A stretch of 64,000 nt of DNA from an uncultured Bacillota bacterium (GTDB taxonomy: Bacteria; Bacillota; Clostridia; Lachnospirales; Lachnospiraceae), in assembly GCA_949291945.1 (NCBI GenBank), contig CASEXH010000010.1, positions 44,482 through 108,481 on the forward strand, given 5' to 3'. A program made the translations under genes and the position numbers. The stretch's first letter is position 1, and every line of letters starts with the position of its first letter. Positions 6,004 to 25,125 of this stretch are shown here, piece after piece. Under the pieces are notes generated by a model, which did no database searches, was not told the origin of the DNA, and worked only from the letters and a program-made list of their open reading frames with translations.

Positions 6004-6158
6004 AAAAAAGGGCGGCATTTATCGCTTATCCGATAAATGTCGCCCAGACGTCCGGCTTCTCTATCAGCTCTTGCCACATCATGGTACTCCATTTTATACG
6101 TCAGCAGCAAAAACCCTTTATTTAAATTCAACATATCACATTCAATGCCTTCTGTCAA
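6004..6158 (-). promoter_or_regulatory. Sigma-A promoter and 5' leader containing an intrinsic terminator (attenuator) ahead of the hydrogenase operon
   Basis: TTGACA (6158-6153), 17 bp, TATGTT (6135-6130). A 15-bp stem (6010-6024 / 6031-6045) is followed by T6 on the minus strand, ending ~25 nt before the TTG start. Confidence 0.7.
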
Positions 6159-14138: not shown

Positions 14139-16010
14139 ATGATTTCATCTATGAAAGACTTGTTTCTCAATGAAACAAAAAGAAGCATTTTATTTCTTGT
14201 GATCTCCGGTCTCTCTCTGCTGATCAGTTTTCTGGAGCCGGAAGGTATTCTTTTTAACACAGCCTGGATCGCCATTCTTCTCTGCGGGATCCCAATCATC
14301 AAAGAAGCCATAGAAGGCCTTGTCACACGGTTTGACATTAAAGCAGACGTATTAGTATCTCTGGCTCTGATCGCTTCAGTGATCATTGGAGAGATCTTTG
14401 CTGCCGGCGAAGTGGCTTTTATCATGCAGATCGGTTCTCTTTTAGAAGAACTTACTGTAGCCAAGGCAAGGGCTGGTATTGAAAAGCTGGTACACCTTAC
14501 CCCTTTAACTGCACGAAAGATCCTAAACGGCAAAGAAATCATCCTGCCGGCTAAAGAGGTGGCTGTCAATGATGTACTCCGGGTTCTTCCGGGAGAGACT
14601 ATCCCTGTAGACGGGGTAATCCTATCCGGAGAGACCTCCGTGGATCAGGCCGTTATGACAGGAGAATCTCTTCCGGTGGACAAAGGTCCGGGAGACGAGG
14701 TATCCAGCGGAACGGTCAACCAGTTCGGTTCTTTTGATATGAAAGCTTCCAGAGTAGGGGAAGACAGCTCTATCTGGCGGATGATCCGTCTGGTCCAGTC
14801 TGCTGATGCCGGAAAGGCCAAGATCGTAAGGCTGGCAGACCGGTGGGCCACCTGGATCGTGGTCATCGCTCTGACTGCCGCAGCTCTTACCTGGCTGATA
14901 TCCGGCCAGATCATCCGGGCTGTGACCATACTGGTAGTCTTCTGTCCCTGTGCCCTGGTACTGGCCACTCCCACCGCCATCATGGCGGCCATCGGAAATG
15001 CTACAAAGCATGGTTTCCTGGTAAGAGAAGGCGACGCTCTGGAGCGCCTGGCTCAGGTCTCTCAAGTTGCCTTTGACAAGACAGGAACCCTCACTTATGG
15101 AAAACCTCAGGTAGCGGCTGTAGAAAGTTTCTCACCGGATATTTCCTCTGAAAAACTATACCGTCTTGCCGCCGAAGCTGAGCTTCGTTCAGAACACCCC
15201 CTTGGCAAAGCAGTAGTCCAGGGATACAAGCAGTCTTATCCTGAAACCGCACCTGAAGCTCCCCAATCCTTTTCCATGCTCCCGGGCAAAGGCGTAAAAG
15301 CCATGGCAGATCACGTGGAGGTGCTGGCAGGCAATCCCTCTCTCCTGGAGGAGAATCAGATTTCCATACCTCAAAAAGCCCTGGATTCTGCAGCAGGCTA
15401 TATACAAAAGGGCTGCACTCTTATTTATCTGGGAATTGAAAAAAGGTTCGGAGGATTTGCGGCCCTTTGGGATACCCTGAGGGAAACTGCTCCTGAAATG
15501 ATCAGCAGGCTGAAACAGCTTGGCCTCACTCCCGTACTTATGACCGGGGATCATGAAAATGCTGCCAGGACCATTGCTGATCAGCTGCATATTGATAAAG
15601 TCCATGCCGGCTGTCTCCCGGAGGATAAGCTCAATTACATAGCCTCTTCCCAGGGAAAAAAAGAAATGGTATGTATGATCGGAGATGGCATCAACGATGC
15701 TCCTGCACTGAAAAAAGCCCATGTGAGCATTGCCATGGGCGGAGTGGGAAGTGATATTGCTGTAGACGCAGCCGACATTGCTCTGGTAAATGATGACATC
15801 AAGGAGCTTCCACATCTGGTTTCTCTGTCCAGAAAGATGATGACTACGATCAAATGCAATCTGGCATTCTCCATGACTTTGAATTTTGCAGCCATCATAC
15901 TGGCGATTACGGGGATCCTGAACCCCGTAGTAGGCGCTCTCGTCCACAATGCAGGATCTGTGCTGGTGATCATAAACTCCAGCCTGCTGCTGACCTATAG
16001 GAAAAAATAA
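14139..16010 (+). CDS. Heavy-metal-translocating P1B-type ATPase
   Basis: Motifs TGES, CPC, DKTGT, SEHP and GDGINDAP; no N-terminal metal-binding domain. Confidence 0.95.
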   Translation: MISSMKDLFLNETKRSILFLVISGLSLLISFLEPEGILFNTAWIAILLCGIPIIKEAIEGLVTRFDIKADVLVSLALIASVIIGEIFAAGEVAFIMQIGSLLEELTVAKARAGIEKLVHLTPLTARKILNGKEIILPAKEVAVNDVLRVLPGETIPVDGVILSGETSVDQAVMTGESLPVDKGPGDEVSSGTVNQFGSFDMKASRVGEDSSIWRMIRLVQSADAGKAKIVRLADRWATWIVVIALTAAALTWLISGQIIRAVTILVVFCPCALVLATPTAIMAAIGNATKHGFLVREGDALERLAQVSQVAFDKTGTLTYGKPQVAAVESFSPDISSEKLYRLAAEAELRSEHPLGKAVVQGYKQSYPETAPEAPQSFSMLPGKGVKAMADHVEVLAGNPSLLEENQISIPQKALDSAAGYIQKGCTLIYLGIEKRFGGFAALWDTLRETAPEMISRLKQLGLTPVLMTGDHENAARTIADQLHIDKVHAGCLPEDKLNYIASSQGKKEMVCMIGDGINDAPALKKAHVSIAMGGVGSDIAVDAADIALVNDDIKELPHLVSLSRKMMTTIKCNLAFSMTLNFAAIILAITGILNPVVGALVHNAGSVLVIINSSLLLTYRKK

Positions 16011-16109: not shown

Positions 16110-16877
16110 TTATTTCCGGTTTTTCTGATAGATGATATACAGTCCCTTCAGCAGCAGGTTATCATCTAAAATCACTTTTCTCCGGCAATGAGGAACGATC
16201 CTTTTAGCCAGTCCGCCAGTAGCGACGACTGTAGCCGTCTCTCCCAGTTCTTCCTCCAGCCGGTCAATGATTCCGTCCATAGCTGCCGCTGCACTGTAGA
16301 TCACACCGCTTTTCATACATTCTGTTGTGTTCTTTCCAATAATGTGTTCCGGAGCCTCCAGGCTGATGCCGCCAAGCTGGGAAGCATGGGCCGTCAGAGA
16401 ATCCAAAGATACTCCGATACCCGGATAAATCATACCGCCAATATAGTTTTTATTCCGGTCAATAACACATACCGTATTGGCGGTACCCAGGTCAAAAATC
16501 AGCAAAGGCACCGGATATTCGGCAATCCCCGCCACAGAGTCCACCACCAGATCACTTCCCAGCTGAGCCGGGTTGTCAATCCGGATATTCAAGCCTGTCT
16601 TAATACCCGCTCCCACGATCAGGACTTCCTTTTTCAGTATTTTTTCTACTGCCAGCTTTGCCGCCCTGGTCACCTGGGGAACCACAGAGGAAATAATCCC
16701 TCCTTCCAGCTGTTCCTGCCGGATATGGTAAATGTCCAAAACATTTTTGATATCAATGGCATATTCCAGTTCTGTCTTGGTATGGACAGTGGAAAGGCGC
16801 TCCACAAACAGACATTCTCCCTTCTGGATACAGCCAATGACAATATTTGTATTTCCGATATCAATCGCTAAAATCAT
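16110..16877 (-). CDS. coaX: Type III pantothenate kinase
   Basis: Motifs LAIDIGNTN, SSVVP, GSDL, DLGTA and ATGG. Confidence 0.95.
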   Translation of the reverse strand: MILAIDIGNTNIVIGCIQKGECLFVERLSTVHTKTELEYAIDIKNVLDIYHIRQEQLEGGIISSVVPQVTRAAKLAVEKILKKEVLIVGAGIKTGLNIRIDNPAQLGSDLVVDSVAGIAEYPVPLLIFDLGTANTVCVIDRNKNYIGGMIYPGIGVSLDSLTAHASQLGGISLEAPEHIIGKNTTECMKSGVIYSAAAAMDGIIDRLEEELGETATVVATGGLAKRIVPHCRRKVILDDNLLLKGLYIIYQKNRK

Positions 16878-17562
16878 AAGTAAAACCTAATCTTTCCCTG
16901 ATATTCTTTTTCATCAGCACACGGCCGATAAAGAAGGTAAGGATCCCTGCCACAATGGCTTCAGGAACTCCATTGATTCCAATAATAGATAAGATGAATC
17001 CGTATACAGCCTGGACAGCCACCTCATTGGCCGCCGCATAAGCTTCTCTGAAAAACAGAAAGATCATGTTCATGACCAGCAAAGTATTCACCAGTGCGCC
17101 TGAAATTCCCGCCAGGATCAGTCCCAGATTGGAAACTCCCTTGCTTGTCCCGAACTTTTTCACTCCCTTGTAGACAAAGTAGGGAACCACTCCTACCAAT
17201 ATCCTGGGAACGAAGCAGATAAGGATGCTTCCGATCCCGCCGCTGAACTCTCCAAGATTATAAAAGGGTGTAAAAACAAAAGATGTGACGGTAGGGTTCA
17301 TCGTGTTGTTAATGAAGCTGGTAAGGCCGAAAAGAAATCCCAGACCCGCTCCTTTCTTTGGTCCCAGAAGCAGAGATGCCAGTATAACGGGGATGTGGAT
17401 AATCGTGGCTCTTGTAAATCCCAGAGGGATATATCCGAGAAAAGGGGTAAAAGCCATGATCACAATGATCGCCCCGAAAATGGCGGTCTGCACCATACTT
17501 CTGATCTGTCGTCTGTTATCTCCAGGCGTCCGCCTGGCTGCTGTGTTCTGATAATGATTCAT
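16861..17562 (-). CDS. panT: ECF transporter S component, pantothenate (PanT-like)
   Basis: Motif TPFLGYIPLGFTRATIIHIPV; located between coaBC and coaX. Confidence 0.8.
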   Translation of the reverse strand: MNHYQNTAARRTPGDNRRQIRSMVQTAIFGAIIVIMAFTPFLGYIPLGFTRATIIHIPVILASLLLGPKKGAGLGFLFGLTSFINNTMNPTVTSFVFTPFYNLGEFSGGIGSILICFVPRILVGVVPYFVYKGVKKFGTSKGVSNLGLILAGISGALVNTLLVMNMIFLFFREAYAAANEVAVQAVYGFILSIIGINGVPEAIVAGILTFFIGRVLMKKNIRERLGFTYDFSD

Positions 17563-17655
17563 AATTGCCTCCTTGTTATCGTTCTTTTTTGAGATACAAT
17601 ACTTTTGGCACAGAAATCTCTTTCTGCTCTTGTTCTTTAAGGTTCAGGCCTGATT

Positions 17656-18855
17656 TTACGCCTGTGCCATGTTCTTTAAAATCTGGTCCAGAATTTTTAA
17701 GGCTGCCTCCTCCTTTAACATTTTTTCAAGTGAAACTTCCTCATTTTCTGTGATCATGGTGATCACATTGGTATTTCCGGCAAATCCTGCTCCTTCTACC
17801 TTGAGATTGTTGGCCACGATCATGTCCAGATTTTTGTTTTTCAGTTTTTTCCTGGAATTTTCCAGCATATTCTCTGTCTCCATAGAAAATCCGCAGAGAA
17901 ACTGTCCCTGTTTCTTATGCTCTCCCAGATATTTGAGAATATCCCTGGTCCTTTCCATCTCCAGGGAAATATCCTCTCCCTGTTTCTTCACCTTTTCCTG
18001 GCTGACAGTTTTGGGCCGGTAGTCCGCCACTGCCGCTGCTTTGATGATAATATCCTGTTCTCCTGCACGGCTGGTCACTTCCTGGAACATATCCTCTGCA
18101 GTTACCACAGGAACCACTTCTACAAATTCCGGCGGCGTAATCGCTGCAGGACCCGACACCAGGGTAACCTGAGCCCCTCTCAGCATGGCCATCTTTGCCA
18201 GAGCATAGCCCATTTTCCCGGATGAATGATTGGTAATGTACCGCACCGGATCTATGGGTTCCTGAGTAGGTCCTGCAGTGACCAGAACCTTCTTTCCCTC
18301 CAGATTTTTCGGGAAAGCAATCTCCTTTAAGATATACTGGAGAAGCAGCTCCGGTTCCGGCATTTTGCCCTGACCGGTATCTCCGCAGGCCAGATAACCG
18401 GAAGCCGGACTGATCACCTCACAGCCATAGTGCTCCAGTGTCTTCAGATTATCCTGAACGATGGGATTCTCGTACATCTGGGTGTTCATAGCCGGCGCAA
18501 AGATTATTTTGCAGCGGCAGGCCATCACTGTGGTGGTCAGCATGTCATCGGCAATGCCATGGGCGATCTTCCCGATTATATTGGCCGAAGCCGGAGCCAC
18601 CATAACCACATCTGCTTTTTTTGCCAGTGCCACATGTTCCACATTGTACTGAAAGTTCCTGTCGAAAGTATCGATCAGGCACTTATTTCCCGTCAGAGTC
18701 TCAAAAGTAATGGGATTAATGAAGTTCTCTGCGTTTTTTGTCATCAGCACGTGTACGTCTGCATGAAGCTTTTTCAGGGCGCTGGCAAGGGAAGCGATCT
18801 TGTATGCGGCAATGCTTCCTGTCACTGCCAGCACAACTGTTTTACCTTTCAGCAT
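17656..18855 (-). CDS. coaBC: Phosphopantothenoylcysteine decarboxylase/synthase
   Basis: Motifs TGSIAAYK, PAMNTQMY, TAGPTQEPIDPVRYITNHSSGKMG and AAVADY. Confidence 0.97.
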   Translation of the reverse strand: MLKGKTVVLAVTGSIAAYKIASLASALKKLHADVHVLMTKNAENFINPITFETLTGNKCLIDTFDRNFQYNVEHVALAKKADVVMVAPASANIIGKIAHGIADDMLTTTVMACRCKIIFAPAMNTQMYENPIVQDNLKTLEHYGCEVISPASGYLACGDTGQGKMPEPELLLQYILKEIAFPKNLEGKKVLVTAGPTQEPIDPVRYITNHSSGKMGYALAKMAMLRGAQVTLVSGPAAITPPEFVEVVPVVTAEDMFQEVTSRAGEQDIIIKAAAVADYRPKTVSQEKVKKQGEDISLEMERTRDILKYLGEHKKQGQFLCGFSMETENMLENSRKKLKNKNLDMIVANNLKVEGAGFAGNTNVITMITENEEVSLEKMLKEEAALKILDQILKNMAQA

Positions 18856-18918: not shown

Positions 18919-19959
18919 TTATAGGGGATTCCTGTAAAAAAAGCAATTCTTTTTGGTTTCCGCCTGGGGCATACTTCCCTCCCTCTTTCCTGATCCGTCA
19001 AACAGATGGCAGGCTACTTCATGCCCCTCTCCGATGGTCTTCCGTACAGGACGTTCTTTCCTGCACAATTCCCTGCAAGATTCGCAGCGGGTCTGGAAAG
19101 GACAGCCCGGAGGCATATCCAGAGGGCTGGGAATCTCGCTGTCCATTGGCTCTATCTTTTTATAAAAGTCCATCTTCGGATCAAAAATGGAATCAATCAA
19201 AGTACGTGTATAAGGGTGTTTTGCCTTTTCCACTTCCCCTCCGGGAATGATCTCCACAATATTTCCCAGATACATGACGGCGATCTGATGGGCAAAGGAG
19301 TGGATCAGTCCCAGATCATGGGCAATGAATCCGATGGCAATATTATTTTCTTTCTGCAGCCTGCAGACCAGTTGGATAATGGTTTTCTGCACAGACACAT
19401 CTAAGGCACAGGTGGCTTCATCCATGATGATCAGTTCCGGTTCCAGAGCAATAGCCCGGGCAATGGCGATCCTTTGGCGCTGTCCGCCAGACATGCTGTG
19501 GGGAAAGCGGTCTGCGAAATCTCCGGGAAGGTCCACTGCTTCCAGAAGCTCCCGGGCCTTCTCCTCCTTCTCGGAAGCTTTGATCCGGCCAAAGTTCATA
19601 AGGGGTTCGCATAAAATATCCCGGATGCGCATCTTAGGATTAAAAGACCCGTTAGGATCCTGGAAGACCATCTGGATATGCTGACGGGTCTGGCGCAGTT
19701 CCTCCCCTTTCATTTTTGTCAGGTCCTTTCCCCTGAAGAGAATCTCTCCCTCTGTGGGAATGTCCAGCCGGACCACAAGACGCATAAATGTAGATTTTCC
19801 GCAGCCGGACTCTCCGATCAGCCCCAAAGTTTTCCCTTTGTAAAATTTCAGATTAACGTCGTTGCAGGCGGTCAGCACTCTGCCCCCTGAAGCAGGAAAA
19901 CGGCGGGTCACATGTCTTGCCTCCAGCAGCAAGTCCTTTTCATCAAACATAACGCTCAC
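18919..19959 (-). CDS. Peptide/nickel ABC transporter ATP-binding subunit
   Basis: GESGCGKS, MSGGQRQR, DEAT, HPYT and a C-terminal Cys motif. Confidence 0.93.
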   Translation of the reverse strand: MSVMFDEKDLLLEARHVTRRFPASGGRVLTACNDVNLKFYKGKTLGLIGESGCGKSTFMRLVVRLDIPTEGEILFRGKDLTKMKGEELRQTRQHIQMVFQDPNGSFNPKMRIRDILCEPLMNFGRIKASEKEEKARELLEAVDLPGDFADRFPHSMSGGQRQRIAIARAIALEPELIIMDEATCALDVSVQKTIIQLVCRLQKENNIAIGFIAHDLGLIHSFAHQIAVMYLGNIVEIIPGGEVEKAKHPYTRTLIDSIFDPKMDFYKKIEPMDSEIPSPLDMPPGCPFQTRCESCRELCRKERPVRKTIGEGHEVACHLFDGSGKREGSMPQAETKKNCFFYRNPL

Positions 19960-20725
19960 CTCCCAGAGAAGGAACCGCCTCTAAAAGTTCCTGTGTATAA
20001 ATGCTGCGGCCACCTTTCAGGATCTGATCCCGACTGCCGGTATCTGCGATCTGTCCCTCTTTCATCACCAGGATCTGATCGGACATATAGGCTGCAACTC
20101 CTAAATTGTGAGTAACCATAATAATACTTGTCCCCCACTCCTCCCGCAGTTCTATCATCTGTCTTACGATCTGGGCCTGGGTAGTCACGTCCAGCGCAGA
20201 AGTAGGCTCATCTGCCAGCAATAGCTTTGGCTGAAAGGTCATAGCCATGGCAATGCCCACCCGCTGCCGCATACCGCCGGAAAGCTGGAAGGGATAAGAT
20301 TTCATAATATTGTCGCTGCTTGGCAAGCGCATACGGTCGAGCATTTCCCGCCCTTTCTCCCAAGCCGCTTTCCTGCTGATCTTTTCGTGAGTGCGGATAT
20401 ATTCCACAAAGACACTGCCGATTTTTCTGATAGGATTCAGCATAGCGCCGGAATCCTGAAAGATCATAGACATGTCTGTACCCCGGAGATTTCTCCACTC
20501 TTCCGCTGTGTTGTCCAGCAGGGATTTTCCTTCAAATAGGATGTCTCCCCCTGTAATCTTTCCCCCTCCCGGCAGCAGGCCGAGCACTGCCCGGATCACG
20601 GTGGTTTTCCCTGAGCCGGACTCGCCTACGATAGAGGCAATCTCGCCTTTTTTGAGGGTCATACTGAAATTATTAACCGTAGGGCGGTCTCCGTAGGATA
20701 TGGTAACATTTTTTATCTCAAGCAT
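19943..20725 (-). CDS. Peptide/nickel ABC transporter ATP-binding subunit
   Basis: GESGSGKT, LSGGMRQR and DEPTSALD. Confidence 0.93.
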   Translation of the reverse strand: MLEIKNVTISYGDRPTVNNFSMTLKKGEIASIVGESGSGKTTVIRAVLGLLPGGGKITGGDILFEGKSLLDNTAEEWRNLRGTDMSMIFQDSGAMLNPIRKIGSVFVEYIRTHEKISRKAAWEKGREMLDRMRLPSSDNIMKSYPFQLSGGMRQRVGIAMAMTFQPKLLLADEPTSALDVTTQAQIVRQMIELREEWGTSIIMVTHNLGVAAYMSDQILVMKEGQIADTGSRDQILKGGRSIYTQELLEAVPSLGGERYV

Positions 20726-20736
20726 AAAATCCCCTC

Positions 20737-21564
20737 CTACTCATCTTTTGGATCCAGGACATCCCGAAGGGCGTCTCCCAGAAGATTAAAGACAACTACT
20801 ACAATGAAAATCGCCGCTCCCGGAAAAATCATCATCCAGGAAGCATTCTGGATATACTGGCGGCCTTCGTTGAGCATCAGGCCCCATTCAGGCGTAGGCG
20901 CCTTAGCGCCGAAGCCAAGGAAGGAAAGCCCTGCCAGTTCCAGCATCATACCTCCGATATCTGTGGCGGCGGTAATGACCAAAGTGGGGATAACGTTGGG
21001 GATCATATATTTCCGCAGTATATAAAGAGTCCTGGAACCTGTGATCACGGCGGCGGCCACATAATCCCGGTTCCGGATCTTCAGCACCAGGCTCCGGGCA
21101 AGTCTGGCATATTTTGTCCAGCTTACCAAGGCCACTGCGATCACCGCATTCCTAATGCTGGCTCCCAGGACGCCGGCAATGGCCATAGCGAAAACCATCC
21201 CCGGGAAAGATACCATCAGGTCTGCGATACGCATGATCACAGTATCTATCCAGCCGCCGAAATAGCCGGCCAGAACACCCAGGACTGTTCCCAGCACAAA
21301 AATAAGGATCACTACAGAGAAAGCCGCCACAAGACTGGTCCGGGCTCCATATATCACCCGGGTAAAAATGTCACGCCCCAGTTTGTCAGTTCCGAAAATA
21401 TGCTCTCTGCCGGGAGGCTTTAGAGCGTCCCCCAGCACAGCCTCTGAAGGGCTGACCCCTCCTGTGATGACCGGGGCAAAAACAGCCGTAAGGATGATCA
21501 AAAAGGCGAGGAAAGCAAAGAAACAAAAGGACTTGTTTTTTATGATAAAATTTCTGATTTTCAT
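20737..21564 (-). CDS. Peptide/nickel ABC permease (DppC/NikC-like)
   Basis: FGTDKLGRD, EAA-like loop and LSFLGFG. Confidence 0.92.
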   Translation of the reverse strand: MKIRNFIIKNKSFCFFAFLAFLIILTAVFAPVITGGVSPSEAVLGDALKPPGREHIFGTDKLGRDIFTRVIYGARTSLVAAFSVVILIFVLGTVLGVLAGYFGGWIDTVIMRIADLMVSFPGMVFAMAIAGVLGASIRNAVIAVALVSWTKYARLARSLVLKIRNRDYVAAAVITGSRTLYILRKYMIPNVIPTLVITAATDIGGMMLELAGLSFLGFGAKAPTPEWGLMLNEGRQYIQNASWMMIFPGAAIFIVVVVFNLLGDALRDVLDPKDE

Positions 21565-21570
21565 TCTTCT

Positions 21571-22509
21571 CTACCACCTTTCTTTCATTCTTGGGTCAAC
21601 CAGGTTATAGGAAATATCCACCAGCAGATTAACCACCATATAGATCAGAGAAATCCATAAGACATACCCCTGAATCAGGGGATAATCGTATGCGGTTATG
21701 GCAGATACCGCCAGATTTCCCAGGCCGGGATAGGTAAAGATAACCTCCACCACAGCGGTTCCCCCCAATAGAGAGCCGAGGGACAGTCCCAGCATAGTCA
21801 GCAGAGGCAGCAGGGAATTGGGGAATACATTGAGCCACAGGATCTTCCACTCCTTCACTCCCCTGGCTCTTGCTCCCACAACATAATCCTGGCTCAGCTC
21901 CTCCAGAATTGCAGTCCGCACCTGACGGGTATACTTGGCAGACATGGCAAACGCAAGGGTGACTGCCGGAAGTATCATACTTTGAAAGTCCCCTCCCGAA
22001 CAGACTACAGGCAGAAGCTTCAAACGAACGCAGAAAAACAGCATCAGCAGCAGACCTACCCAGAAATTCGGCATGGATACACCAAAAAACGTGAGGCCCC
22101 GCAGACCGTAATCCACAAGACTATTTTTGTGAGTGGCCTGTATCATACCGAGAGGTACGGCTATCAAAAGCATCAGGATCATAGAAAAAATGGACAGCTT
22201 CAGCGTAGGCCAGAGCCGATTCAAAAGTAAAGTGGAAACAGAGTTGTTATAGGCATAAGATGTGCCGAAATCTCCATGAAGACATCCTGTCAGCCAGTCA
22301 AAATACTGGACCAATACAGGCCGGTTCAGACCCATAGCCTCCCGTGTCTGCTGGATGACCTCTTCGCTTGGTACAACTCCGGAAGCCGCATACATGGTAC
22401 GCACCGGATCGCCAGGTGCCAGGTAAGTGATCAAAAATGACAAAAAACTGATTCCCACGGCTACAAGGATCATCTGGATCAGTCTTTTTCCTAAGTATTT
22501 TGCAGTCAA
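21571..22509 (-). CDS. Peptide/nickel ABC permease (DppB/NikB-like)
   Basis: PGDP, GDFGTSY, VSMPNFW and DYPLIQG. Probable TTG start at 22509 after GAAAGGAG. Confidence 0.92.
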   Translation of the reverse strand: MTAKYLGKRLIQMILVAVGISFLSFLITYLAPGDPVRTMYAASGVVPSEEVIQQTREAMGLNRPVLVQYFDWLTGCLHGDFGTSYAYNNSVSTLLLNRLWPTLKLSIFSMILMLLIAVPLGMIQATHKNSLVDYGLRGLTFFGVSMPNFWVGLLLMLFFCVRLKLLPVVCSGGDFQSMILPAVTLAFAMSAKYTRQVRTAILEELSQDYVVGARARGVKEWKILWLNVFPNSLLPLLTMLGLSLGSLLGGTAVVEVIFTYPGLGNLAVSAITAYDYPLIQGYVLWISLIYMVVNLLVDISYNLVDPRMKERW

Positions 22510-22604
22510 AATTTTCTCTCCTTTCTGCACAGGCAGTTCCTGGAAAGGGCAATCTGCATTTCCCGGAAAAGCATGGCTTTTCCAGGAAAACTGTGATCAC
22601 CTTA

Positions 22605-24269
22605 TCAGGACTGGGCCGCAGGATATATTTCATTGGTAAGCCAGTAATAATCTGCCGTATGGATCGCTGCGCCGCCGATAGTAGCGTTTCTGGAGATCAT
22701 AGAGCTGTTATAATAGCCGTGAACAACCACAGCCGCATCATCAAGAAGGATCTGCTGCATCCTCTGGATAATGTCACGGCGCTCATCTTCATCAAAAGTA
22801 GTGCTCAGCTGATTGTATAATTCATCATATTCATCATTCTGATAGCCGCAGTAATCAGAGCCTGAGTCAGAACACCATGCAGCCAGATATTCTGTAGGAT
22901 CTCCGGTGCCTACGGTGGTCCAGTTGGATCCGTTTAAGTCAAAATCACCGGACTGGTAGCTGTCCCACTGACGGGCAGAATCTCCCAGTTCCAGATCAAC
23001 CCCGATGCCGATTTCCGCAAGCTGCTGTTGAATGGCTTCTGCAAAATCATCCAGGCAGCGGTTGGAATAGGTCACATAATGAAGGACCACTTCCTGTCCG
23101 TCCAGTTCCCGGGTTCCGTCACCGTTAGTATCCACAATTCCCGCTTCGTCCAGAAGCTGTATTGCCGCCTCCTGGTCATAGGGATAAGGATCCGTCAGAT
23201 TCTCATACCCATAGTCCAGATTGGAAGGCAGGACCGAATAGCCGGAAGTATACAATCCGCCTACTGTAACAGAACACATTGTCTCGTCGTCCAGAGCCAT
23301 CAGCACTGCTTCACGGAGAGTCTTATTAGACAGCAGCCTGCCCTCAGACATATTCATGTGAGCCAGGCCGGTGCGGACACTGCTGGCAATGGTAACGGTA
23401 AATTCAGGGTTCTCCCGAAGAGTATTCAGGTCACTGATATTTGTCACGTTTTCAGCCAGATCCAGCTGGCCGGACTGAAGGGCCATAGCCTTTGCAGAGG
23501 CATCTCCCATATACAGCAGCTCAACAGATTCAAAAGGCACCTCACCGTCCCAGTAATATTCATTTGCTGCCATGGTATAGCCCACCTCTTCCTGAAAATC
23601 AGCAGCCACATAAGGGCCGGTTCCGATGGGGCTGTGATCATAATCTGTGGTATGTTCCACGTCCAGAATAGCCATAACCGGATAAGCCAGATTTTTGGTC
23701 AGATCCACATACGGGGTTGTGGTCCGGATGGTCAGATTTCCCGTCTCATTGTCGGCAATGATCTCTGCATCTGTTTCCAGATAAACCTGGGGAGCCGATG
23801 AGCCATTGGGGCCTTCTTCAAATAACCGTTCAAAACTTGCTTTCACAGCTTCCGGAGTCAGGTCGCAGCCGTCAGAAAACTTCACGCCTTCCCGGATATG
23901 AAACACCCATTCTGTATGATCATCATTAACTGTATAAGTATCGCACAGGGTATTGACCACATTCATAGAGTTGTCGAATTTAAACAGACACTCTCCCACC
24001 CCATAGCGGGAAAGATTCCAGGCACAATTTATTTCTGCGGCAGGATCAAGACCGCCGCCGCTGTAGTTCTGTATCCCAAAGGTCATCGACCTGCCCCCGG
24101 AACTGTCCTGTTCTGTCTCATAGGCTTCCTGGTTCACTTCATCCTCCCGGTTTCCCGAACCAGTTCCGGCGGTGCTTGCAGATTCTGTACTTTCTCCCCA
24201 GCATCCGGTCATACTGGCGGCGATCAGCAGGGAGGACAGCAGTAATGAAAATACTTTTTTCGCTTTCAT
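22605..24269 (-). CDS. Peptide/nickel-family substrate-binding lipoprotein
   Basis: Lipobox MTGC, LREGVKFSDG-like segment (IREGVKFSDG) and PIGTGPY. ATG at 24269 after GAGG. Confidence 0.9.
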   Translation of the reverse strand: MKAKKVFSLLLSSLLIAASMTGCWGESTESASTAGTGSGNREDEVNQEAYETEQDSSGGRSMTFGIQNYSGGGLDPAAEINCAWNLSRYGVGECLFKFDNSMNVVNTLCDTYTVNDDHTEWVFHIREGVKFSDGCDLTPEAVKASFERLFEEGPNGSSAPQVYLETDAEIIADNETGNLTIRTTTPYVDLTKNLAYPVMAILDVEHTTDYDHSPIGTGPYVAADFQEEVGYTMAANEYYWDGEVPFESVELLYMGDASAKAMALQSGQLDLAENVTNISDLNTLRENPEFTVTIASSVRTGLAHMNMSEGRLLSNKTLREAVLMALDDETMCSVTVGGLYTSGYSVLPSNLDYGYENLTDPYPYDQEAAIQLLDEAGIVDTNGDGTRELDGQEVVLHYVTYSNRCLDDFAEAIQQQLAEIGIGVDLELGDSARQWDSYQSGDFDLNGSNWTTVGTGDPTEYLAAWCSDSGSDYCGYQNDEYDELYNQLSTTFDEDERRDIIQRMQQILLDDAAVVVHGYYNSSMISRNATIGGAAIHTADYYWLTNEIYPAAQS

Positions 24270-24383
24270 ACTTTTTACCTCTTCTTTCTTTTGCAATTTC
24301 ATTCAATCTGGCGGTTCTCTGCCCTACCTCTCGCACTCAAAATTTTATTCTGCGGGACAGTTCGAAGAACTTTCCTATAGAAT

Positions 24384-24412
24384 AAAAAAGACCGTAACTA
24401 TATGTTACGGTC
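24384..24412 (-). terminator. Leader terminator between the cobalamin aptamer and the SBP gene
   Basis: GACCGTAAC-N5-GTTACGGTC followed by T6 on the minus strand. Confidence 0.8.
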
Positions 24413-24530
24413 GGCAGGATATCACATAAAAAGCAGCAGAGATAGAAAAGTACAAAAGCGTATAAATTCCCTGATGCCGGTTTATTAATGAGCACTCCCA
24501 TCGTCCGTAAGAAGCTCAAGGTAAAAGGAT

Positions 24531-24690
24531 AAGCAGGTCTCCTGACTTATGCTCAACGCTCGCCGTGCCTTCCCAAGGCCTGAACCTCAGTGACATCATA
24601 CGGTCTGCTCACAATCACAGTGACGGGATCGTTTCGGATTCTCACCGAATTCCCATTTAATCCATCTCTGGAACTTTTCCTCTGGCATAT
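24531..24690 (-). ncRNA. Cobalamin (B12) riboswitch
   Basis: Minus strand: GGGAATTCGGTGAGAATCCGAAACGATCCCGTCACTGTGA...CACTG...GGGAAG...AGTCAGGAGACCTGC (B12 box). Confidence 0.93.
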
Positions 24691-24854
24691 GTGGCCAAAT
24701 TATGAATTTGTCGTTTATAACCATAACATTCCCCTACCTTACTGTCAAGCTTTTTCCCGCCAAAGCAAAAAGTTCCTAATTTTCTTTTATTTTTGTTGAC
24801 AAACTGGTGTTTTTGCACATATAATACTTTTAATAACTTTTTCACATGTATAAA

Positions 24855-25125
24855 ATGCAGTGACAAGGAGGAGTACATAATCGCCGGATGTCCAGAGAAG
24901 AGACGGCTGGTGAAAGTCTTTGTGAAGGGATTATGGAAGGTAGCCTTCGAGCAGTGGACCGAACCATGATATACCAAGTATCATGCAGTAGACTCCAACG
25001 TAATTTCCACGTTACAGGAAAGCAGTATAGTTTCTTCTGTACTGGCTGAGTGCAGAGAGTGATTCTCTGAAATTAGGTGGTAACACGGATCAATTCGCCC
25101 TAAGCTTTATGCTTAGGGCATTTTT
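24855..25125 (+). ncRNA. T-box riboswitch, Val (GUA) specifier
   Basis: Stem I with AGAGA and GGTGAAA boxes and specifier loop GGAAG-GTA-G (24940-24942). T-box AATTAGGTGGTAACACGG at 25071-25088. Terminator GCCCTAAGC/GCTTAGGGC plus a T-rich run. Confidence 0.9.

Follow-up and report, generated by a model that had tools for sequence, protein, structure and literature searches.

A Nik-type ABC operon behind a cobalamin riboswitch in a Lachnospiraceae genome: a putative B12-repressed importer, probably of cobalt

Among bacterial cobalt importers, a 2021 review (PMC7689651) names CbtJKL, CbiMNQO, NiCoT, HupE, and CorA, and lists no tested transporter of the Nik type. Members of the NikABCDE family of ATP-binding cassette (ABC) importers that are encoded behind B12 riboswitches in Clostridium tetani and also in Desulfitobacterium hafniense have been predicted to transport cobalt, not nickel (Rodionov et al. 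2006, J Bacteriol 188:317, as related by Zhang et al. 2009, PMC2667541). We describe here an operon of this kind, known as a prediction since 2006, in its minimal form. It is located in a stretch of 64,000 nucleotides, hereafter the window, taken from the genome of an uncultured Lachnospiraceae bacterium, a gut Blautia (assembly GCA_949291945.1, contig CASEXH010000010.1, positions 44,482 to 108,481). A preliminary description of this DNA had left the substrate of the importer as unknown, which overstates its novelty, as NikABCDE homologues behind B12 riboswitches are already presented as predicted cobalt transporters in the part of PMC2667541 that deals with them.

Compared by description only, the C. 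tetani and D. hafniense operons resemble the window operon in that a cobalamin riboswitch precedes a five-component importer of the peptide/nickel family in a B12-making anaerobic Firmicute. Two traits set the Lachnospiraceae systems apart: the substrate-binding protein (SBP) of this clade has a signature of its own (GGxYT, R415, W476, GYYN, and no His), and its relatives carry accessory genes which do not appear in the description that PMC2667541 gives of the two earlier operons. CbiMNQO, an energy-coupling factor (ECF) transporter, and CbtJKL of Sinorhizobium meliloti, an ABC transporter with a BtuF-like binding protein, are also found under B12 riboswitches and follow the same regulatory logic with the same presumed role, but they belong to unrelated transporter families, CbtJ being BtuF-like (PMC7689651) and not a member of SBP_bac_5.

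Judging from its sequence, the window operon very probably encodes a Nik-type importer that would be repressed by B12 through a transcription terminator. Its physiological cargo is probably cobalt, most likely in a chelated form. The operon and its leader comprise the following features (window positions).

24720-24748, minus strand: sigma-70-like promoter, TTGACA-17-TATGGT with extended TG, 10/12 matches in a pattern scan
24515-24693, minus strand: cobalamin riboswitch aptamer (RF00174), 110.9 bits, E 6.5e-27, from an Rfam scan
24381-24412, minus strand: intrinsic terminator, GACCGTAAC-loop-GTTACGGTC followed by a T-run, separated from the aptamer by about 103 nt
22605-24269, minus strand: NikA-like substrate-binding lipoprotein (SBP_bac_5, cluster C), assigned by hidden Markov model (HMM), sequence, and fold
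21571-22530, minus strand: permease of the NikB/Opp2B type (BPD_transp_1), NF045470 Opp2B 382.3 bits, cut-off 350
20737-21564, minus strand: permease of the NikC/Opp2C type (BPD_transp_1), NF045474 Opp2C 327.3 bits, cut-off 300
19943-20725, minus strand: NikD/OppD-like ABC ATPase without an oligo_HPY tail, from profile searches
18919-19959, minus strand: NikE/OppF-like ABC ATPase with an oligo_HPY C-terminal domain, overlapping the preceding gene by 17 nt

In the Rfam scan of the whole window, the aptamer exceeds the gathering score of the Cobalamin model (31.5 bits) and matches all 189 model positions (1-189); it has the classical form, with a P6 extension and a B12 box. The promoter lies about 27 nt upstream of the aptamer, with a transcription start predicted by the pattern scan about 8 nt 3' of the -10 element. 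The terminator hairpin found by pattern scan (24412-24390) has 9 bp, five of them GC, and is followed by TTTTTTATT; being on the same strand as the five operon genes and upstream of them, it constitutes the expression platform. Aptamer nucleotides 24606-24599 are able to base-pair with the 3' arm of this hairpin (-12.2 kcal/mol) and form a candidate antiterminator. A single conserved antiterminator was rejected, as the best partner lies in the P6 region in some of the 21 leaders compared and in the B12-box region in others.

Downstream of the terminator, the operon (18919-24269) consists of five intact genes of the PepT family separated by very short or negative spacers. All NikABCDE-type components are present: the SBP_bac_5 protein, two BPD_transp_1 permeases, and two ABC ATPases. 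A domain search of the operon detected neither Peripla_BP_2/FecCD (BtuFCD) nor ECF architecture. The complete B12 aptamer, the leader terminator (given as 24384-24412), and the five-gene peptide/nickel-family operon distinct from BtuFCD and ECF that had been reported in the preliminary description are thus all borne out. The reading frame of the SBP is open from 24302, with a lipobox ending at Cys34 of the long frame. The true start is likely the second ATG, at 24269, because homologues are 549-555 aa long and a GAAGAGG ribosome-binding site precedes this codon.

Under the mechanism that we propose, transcription would begin at the promoter near 24720. When an adenosylcobalamin-type corrinoid is plentiful, it would bind the aptamer, the terminator (24412-24381) would form, and transcription would stop before the genes; when it is scarce, read-through would allow the lipoprotein SBP, the NikB/NikC-type permeases, and the two ATPases to be made. 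The five proteins would then take up cobalt to supply the cell's own anaerobic synthesis of cobamides, acting beside the ECF transporter CbiMNQO, and the metal would probably enter wrapped fully by a small organic chelator, like Ni-(His)2 in S. aureus NikA. We infer all three elements of this scheme, namely ligand-dependent termination, cobalt as the metal, and its chelated form.

Orthologues of the SBP with 75-99% identity are present in many Lachnospiraceae metagenome-assembled genomes, including those of Blautia, Anaerobutyricum, Eubacterium, and Oliverpabstia, the 99% matches being in Candidatus Blautia merdipullorum and Ca. B. merdigallinarum. Rfam scans detected an upstream, co-oriented cobalamin riboswitch at 22 of the 23 related loci for which upstream DNA is available; this count takes in Lachnotalea glycerini, with an SBP of about 47% identity, and its exception is an orphan SBP. 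When one genome was sampled from each of 300 genera of the family, an orthologue (44-64% identity) was found in 19 genera, 14 of which have a cobalamin riboswitch at most 4.5 kb upstream. Given these two counts, the association of riboswitch and operon is not due to chance. Transcription attenuation, moreover, appears to be the conserved mode of control, since 27 of the 32 leaders of orthologous operons contain a terminator, in most cases some 105-125 nt past the aptamer. At two loci (L046 and L052, in genomes G171 and G039), cobalamin riboswitches stand in tandem; one locus has the order riboswitch-LysR-riboswitch-SBP, and the other riboswitch-PBP-like lipoprotein-riboswitch-SBP (PBP, periplasmic binding protein).

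We placed the proteins by NCBIfam HMM scores relative to equivalog cut-offs, by sequence comparison, and by Foldseek ranks. Both permeases exceed the cut-offs of the "nickel ABC transporter permease" equivalogs (the staphylococcal models Opp2B and Opp2C). Their scores on oligopeptide/dipeptide models are far lower (at most 244 and 261 bits), as are those on glutathione models. The SBP is best matched by Opp5A_nikA (225.3 bits, cut-off 600), followed by nickel_nikA of the E. coli type (156.7, cut-off 393), Opp4A (148), CntA (110.7), DppA (72.6), and OppA (55.9). The Opp/Dpp peptide cut-offs are not reached (OppA 55.9 for 947, DppA 72.6 for 1005, Opp4B 243.8 for 450).

These scores bear on the idea that the system imports peptides or acyl-amino acids and is switched on at low B12, for example to spare methionine when the B12-dependent methionine synthase stalls, with the AstE-like deacylase of its relatives freeing the amino acid. 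We regard this as very improbable. Although the family is ancestrally peptide-binding and the SBP scores near AppA and Lmo0135, the permeases reach 382 and 327 bits on the nickel models compared with at most 244 and 261 bits on those for oligopeptides and dipeptides. The Anaerobutyricum operon does encode deacylases of the AstE/AspA type, which act on N-acyl-amino acids, and B12 riboswitches do control B12-sparing functions; at locus L024, for example, one precedes a glycyl-radical enzyme. However, in relatives the operon is linked to metal efflux genes and to a NiCo riboswitch, and its strict co-occurrence with de novo B12 synthesis (see below) would be unexpected for a B12-sparing function.

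By sequence, the solved proteins nearest to the SBP are 3t66, a "nickel-binding protein" of Bacillus halodurans, and S. aureus NikA (SaNikA). An AlphaFold2 model built with 111 homologues (mean predicted local distance difference test, pLDDT, of 93.4) retrieves 3t66, SaNikA, Brucella NikA, and E. coli NikA (EcNikA) at the top ranks of a Foldseek search. As possible pocket residues, we considered either a metal-contacting His, as in EcNikA (His416) and the NikZ HH-prong, or Arg and aromatic contacts to a chelate, as in SaNikA. The comparison of 36 orthologues with 97 more distant family members yielded residues conserved in the clade only, namely Y351, R415, W476, Y530, Y531, W554, and a few Asp/Asn, and no clade-conserved His or Cys. 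SaNikA binds Ni-(His)2 by way of Arg and aromatic residues, the protein not touching the metal (10.1101/2022.10.03.510666), and the Arg/aromatic, His-less pattern of the clade resembles the one reported there, a likeness that is suggestive only.

The staphylococcal system, NikA (Opp5A) with NikBCDE (Opp2BCDF), imports Ni-(L-His)2 (PDB 4ofj, 4xkr). It provides the best HMM for the SBP and is among its best sequence and fold matches; its Opp2B and Opp2C cut-offs are those passed by the permeases; and in both systems Arg and aromatic residues, in the window clade putative pocket residues, are conserved rather than metal-binding His. The window SBP is nevertheless only about 21% identical to SaNikA (225 bits for a cut-off of 600), and it differs in being encoded in one operon with its permeases, in its predicted control by B12 instead of nickel or other regulators, and in its presumed metal, cobalt.

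The gene content of the host genome is informative about which metal this would be. With hemA, hemB, cbiD, and cobS, the host is predicted to be a complete de novo B12 producer. It has three cobalamin riboswitches, which precede the window operon, a cbiM-cbiN-cbiQ-cbiO::cbiK operon, and a gene of the multidrug and toxic compound extrusion (MATE) family; the genome riboswitch scan detected none on the cbi cluster. As a riboswitch is found on cbiM-cbiN-cbiQ-cbiO::cbiK and not on the cbi cluster, cobalt supply and insertion would be the B12-regulated step. The ECF cobalt operon (contig C16, L004:2714-4396; riboswitch at C16:114027-114233) ends in a 560-aa open reading frame (ORF) encoding a CbiO::CbiK fusion. 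By joining the CbiO ATPase to the cobaltochelatase CbiK, this predicted protein would physically couple cobalt import to corrin insertion.

Across the 300 sampled genomes, CbiD is present in all 19 genera that have the SBP and in 145 of the 281 that lack it (about 52%), a comparison in which each genome represents a different genus and related genomes are not independent. The system thus follows B12 producers, not salvagers. In addition, metal homeostasis genes recur around the operon in relatives. A ZntA/CadA-like P1B ATPase with heavy-metal-associated (HMA) domains follows it at eight loci, and in one genus a NiCo riboswitch and a CzcD-type exporter lie immediately upstream of the cobalamin riboswitch. 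In this last case (genome G292, L051:275-3519), the order is AstE-like deacylase, S-adenosylmethionine (SAM) methyltransferase, NiCo riboswitch with CzcD-type cation-efflux gene, and cobalamin riboswitch with Nik-type SBP, an arrangement which, as read from the gene order, is apparently a compact cobalt import/export island.

B12 riboswitches commonly control corrinoid uptake, and the large cluster-C pocket could be thought to receive cobinamide, cobyric acid, a lower-ligand base, or 5-aminolevulinate. A corrinoid precursor or lower ligand was indeed among the substrates put forward in the preliminary description. NikA has been reported to bind heme, according to a remark in PMC2667541. The cluster-C SBP HbpA likewise carries the name heme-binding protein, and the putative pocket signature of the clade is aromatic and without His. 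Moreover, the sole Peripla_BP_2 gene of the host genome is located on contig C24 without a riboswitch, and no riboswitch-controlled BtuFCD is present. Import of corrinoids or their building blocks is nonetheless decidedly unlikely: the presence of CbiD in all 19 SBP genera indicates producers and disfavours salvage; the host, with hemA, hemB, cbiD, and cobS, is itself predicted to make both the corrin ring and 5-aminolevulinate; the permeases are of the nickel clade; and in relatives the operon has metal exporters and a NiCo riboswitch as neighbours rather than genes for cob/cbi salvage. Import of 5-aminolevulinate or another tetrapyrrole precursor as the principal function was rejected, as hemA and hemB are present.

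A transporter of nickel, or of Ni, Co, and Zn chelates in general, placed under B12 control, for instance to balance metals for a corrinoid- and nickel-dependent Wood-Ljungdahl machinery, would agree with the passing of nickel-named models by the permeases, with the nickel-binding nature of the nearest solved relatives of the SBP, and with the promiscuity of the characterised NikA, NikZ, and CntA for Ni, Co, and Zn. Such a function is unlikely, since there is no regulatory logic in shutting off nickel uptake at high B12, the co-occurrence with de novo corrin synthesis is complete (19/19), and the host has a closer NikA paralogue without a riboswitch. This less diverged protein, encoded on contig C4, scores 360 bits on Opp5A_nikA, and its system could serve nickel. 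NikR-type, nickel-responsive control was not found, as the host genome contains no NikR_C match. The C4 locus (L040:4375-16527) comprises two adjacent PepT-family ABC systems without a riboswitch and a two-component system downstream; the gene at the head of the pair encodes a 579-aa protein in which an AstE/AspA-like deacylase is fused to a SAM methyltransferase.

Cobalt, probably as a chelate, is therefore our best reading, in preference to nickel, corrinoids, 5-aminolevulinate, and peptides. It is favoured by the predicted de novo synthesis, the riboswitch on the cbiM operon, the co-occurrence with CbiD, the metal homeostasis genes of relatives, and the possible separate nickel route on C4. 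Import of chelated cobalt or nickel is the best supported of the readings in the preliminary description. Several observations weigh against this reading. The host genome already has CbiMNQO for cobalt. The SBP falls far below every NikA equivalog cut-off (225 for 600 and 157 for 393 bits), with the peptide binders AppA and Lmo0135 only slightly behind NikA in sequence comparison, and it has no conserved metal-coordinating His, so that a purely organic ligand is still compatible with it. Among the 19 orthologues taken from different genera, 5 had no riboswitch detected within 4.5 kb; the position of the antiterminator pairing is not consistent from one orthologous leader to the next; and the window contains no gene for chelator synthesis or export.

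Cobalt is the one external input that a de novo B12 producer needs, and gut Lachnospiraceae are probably important suppliers of cobamides. If our reading is correct, an additional cobalt route of the chelate type, subject to B12 feedback, would account for the way in which they compete for trace cobalt, and the SBP would be a simple handle for finding the natural ligand. The concept is not new; the locus is a clean, minimal, and well-conserved candidate for a first biochemical test.

The part that could be new lies outside the window, in the accessory genes. While the window operon is limited to the five core genes, those of relatives include additional ones in several arrangements. In Anaerobutyricum, an AstE/AspA-family (DoeB-like) deacylase and a MATE transporter are encoded between the riboswitch and the SBP; the deacylase (L009:3774-4847) has a His-rich tail, …SHTHEHLQEKKH…, which could bind metal. 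In other relatives, the MATE gene comes right behind the last ATPase gene, comes right behind the riboswitch, or has its own riboswitch. At 11 loci, a type-I PBP-like lipoprotein of about 406 aa follows the last ATPase, once with its own riboswitch, and a LysR regulator is located either downstream or in the interval that separates riboswitch and SBP. Beside Nik-type systems, including the C4 locus of the host, AstE-like genes also occur as partners of SAM methyltransferases or in fusion with them.

An exporter and a small-molecule hydrolase that are switched on together with the importer at low B12 would fit a metallophore cycle. We tentatively propose, as a possibility that we consider rather doubtful at present, that gut Lachnospiraceae have a "cobaltophore" cycle governed by B12, with the importer as one of its halves. 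In this cycle, a small organic chelator would be processed by the AstE-like deacylase and SAM methyltransferases and exported by the MATE pump, and its cobalt complex would be recaptured by the Nik-type system, with the orphan PBP lipoprotein helping and LysR tuning the process. The window Blautia would have kept the uptake half and would pirate the chelators of its neighbours. That no metallophore synthesis genes are adjacent, as was initially pointed out, holds within the window; relatives, by contrast, carry the MATE, AstE-like deacylase, and methyltransferase genes in or beside the operon. Neither CntKLM-like nor ribosomally synthesized and post-translationally modified peptide (RiPP) biosynthesis genes were found, and no metallophore biosynthetic core was identified in the loci of relatives. 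A search for a small ORF encoding a RiPP precursor in the Anaerobutyricum leader returned nothing convincing.

Two described metallophore systems are formal precedents for such a cycle. In the methanobactin system, a MATE exporter, MbnM, operates with an SBP_bac_5 protein, MbnE. The staphylopine system associates CntABCDF, an importer with a cluster-C SBP, with the synthesis genes CntKLM and the exporter CntE; CntA binds Co-staphylopine (5yhe, among the Foldseek matches of the window SBP), and the MATE genes in or beside the operons of relatives parallel the pairing of importer and exporter. The differences from Cnt are the lack of CntKLM-like genes in the window and in the loci of relatives, a score of 110.7 on the CntA model for a cut-off of 800, and the lack of an exporter in the window operon.

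The third cobalamin riboswitch of the host (contig C5, L005:472-2629) precedes its MATE gene across a 540-nt spacer, which contains a Pro/Gly-rich, spurious-looking 111-aa ORF with partial copies on contigs C12, C29, and C31, perhaps a repeated element. As a candidate for the missing exporter, this MATE protein is weak: it is 22-28% identical to the operon-linked MATE proteins of relatives, belongs to another subfamily, and has orthologues in 29 other genera without a riboswitch within 1.5 kb.

Additional riboswitches were observed at two loci of relatives. L024:3428-6409 has a second cobalamin riboswitch, divergent in orientation, in control of a glycyl-radical enzyme of 872 aa resembling pyruvate formate-lyase, possibly a B12-independent isozyme, whose gene is followed by one for a methyltransferase-AstE-methyltransferase fusion. 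At L026:1539-4758, genes for a tetrapyrrole methylase and an ABC-2-type exporter-like pair stand behind a cobalamin riboswitch; two more such riboswitches, one before a MATE gene and the other before the Nik-type operon, follow within 7 kb.

Finally, several other features surround the operon in the window. On the same strand (16110-18855, minus), coaBC, a gene for an ECF S-component, and coaX begin 63 nt past the last ATPase gene. No terminator was detected between them and the ATPase gene, and a weak promoter-like site is present in this interval (18884-18857); read-through from the B12-controlled operon into the coenzyme A genes is possible to some extent. Three kilobases beyond the operon, the plus strand (14139-16010) encodes a heavy-metal ATPase of the P1B type that lacks an N-terminal metal-binding domain; its identity to the HMA-bearing P1B ATPases found after the operon in relatives is only about 30%. 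At 6035-6118 on the minus strand there is a ZTP riboswitch (44.6 bits), and on the other side of the operon a T-box leader for ilvB (24851-25105, plus strand, 111.8 bits) is divergent from the riboswitch promoter.

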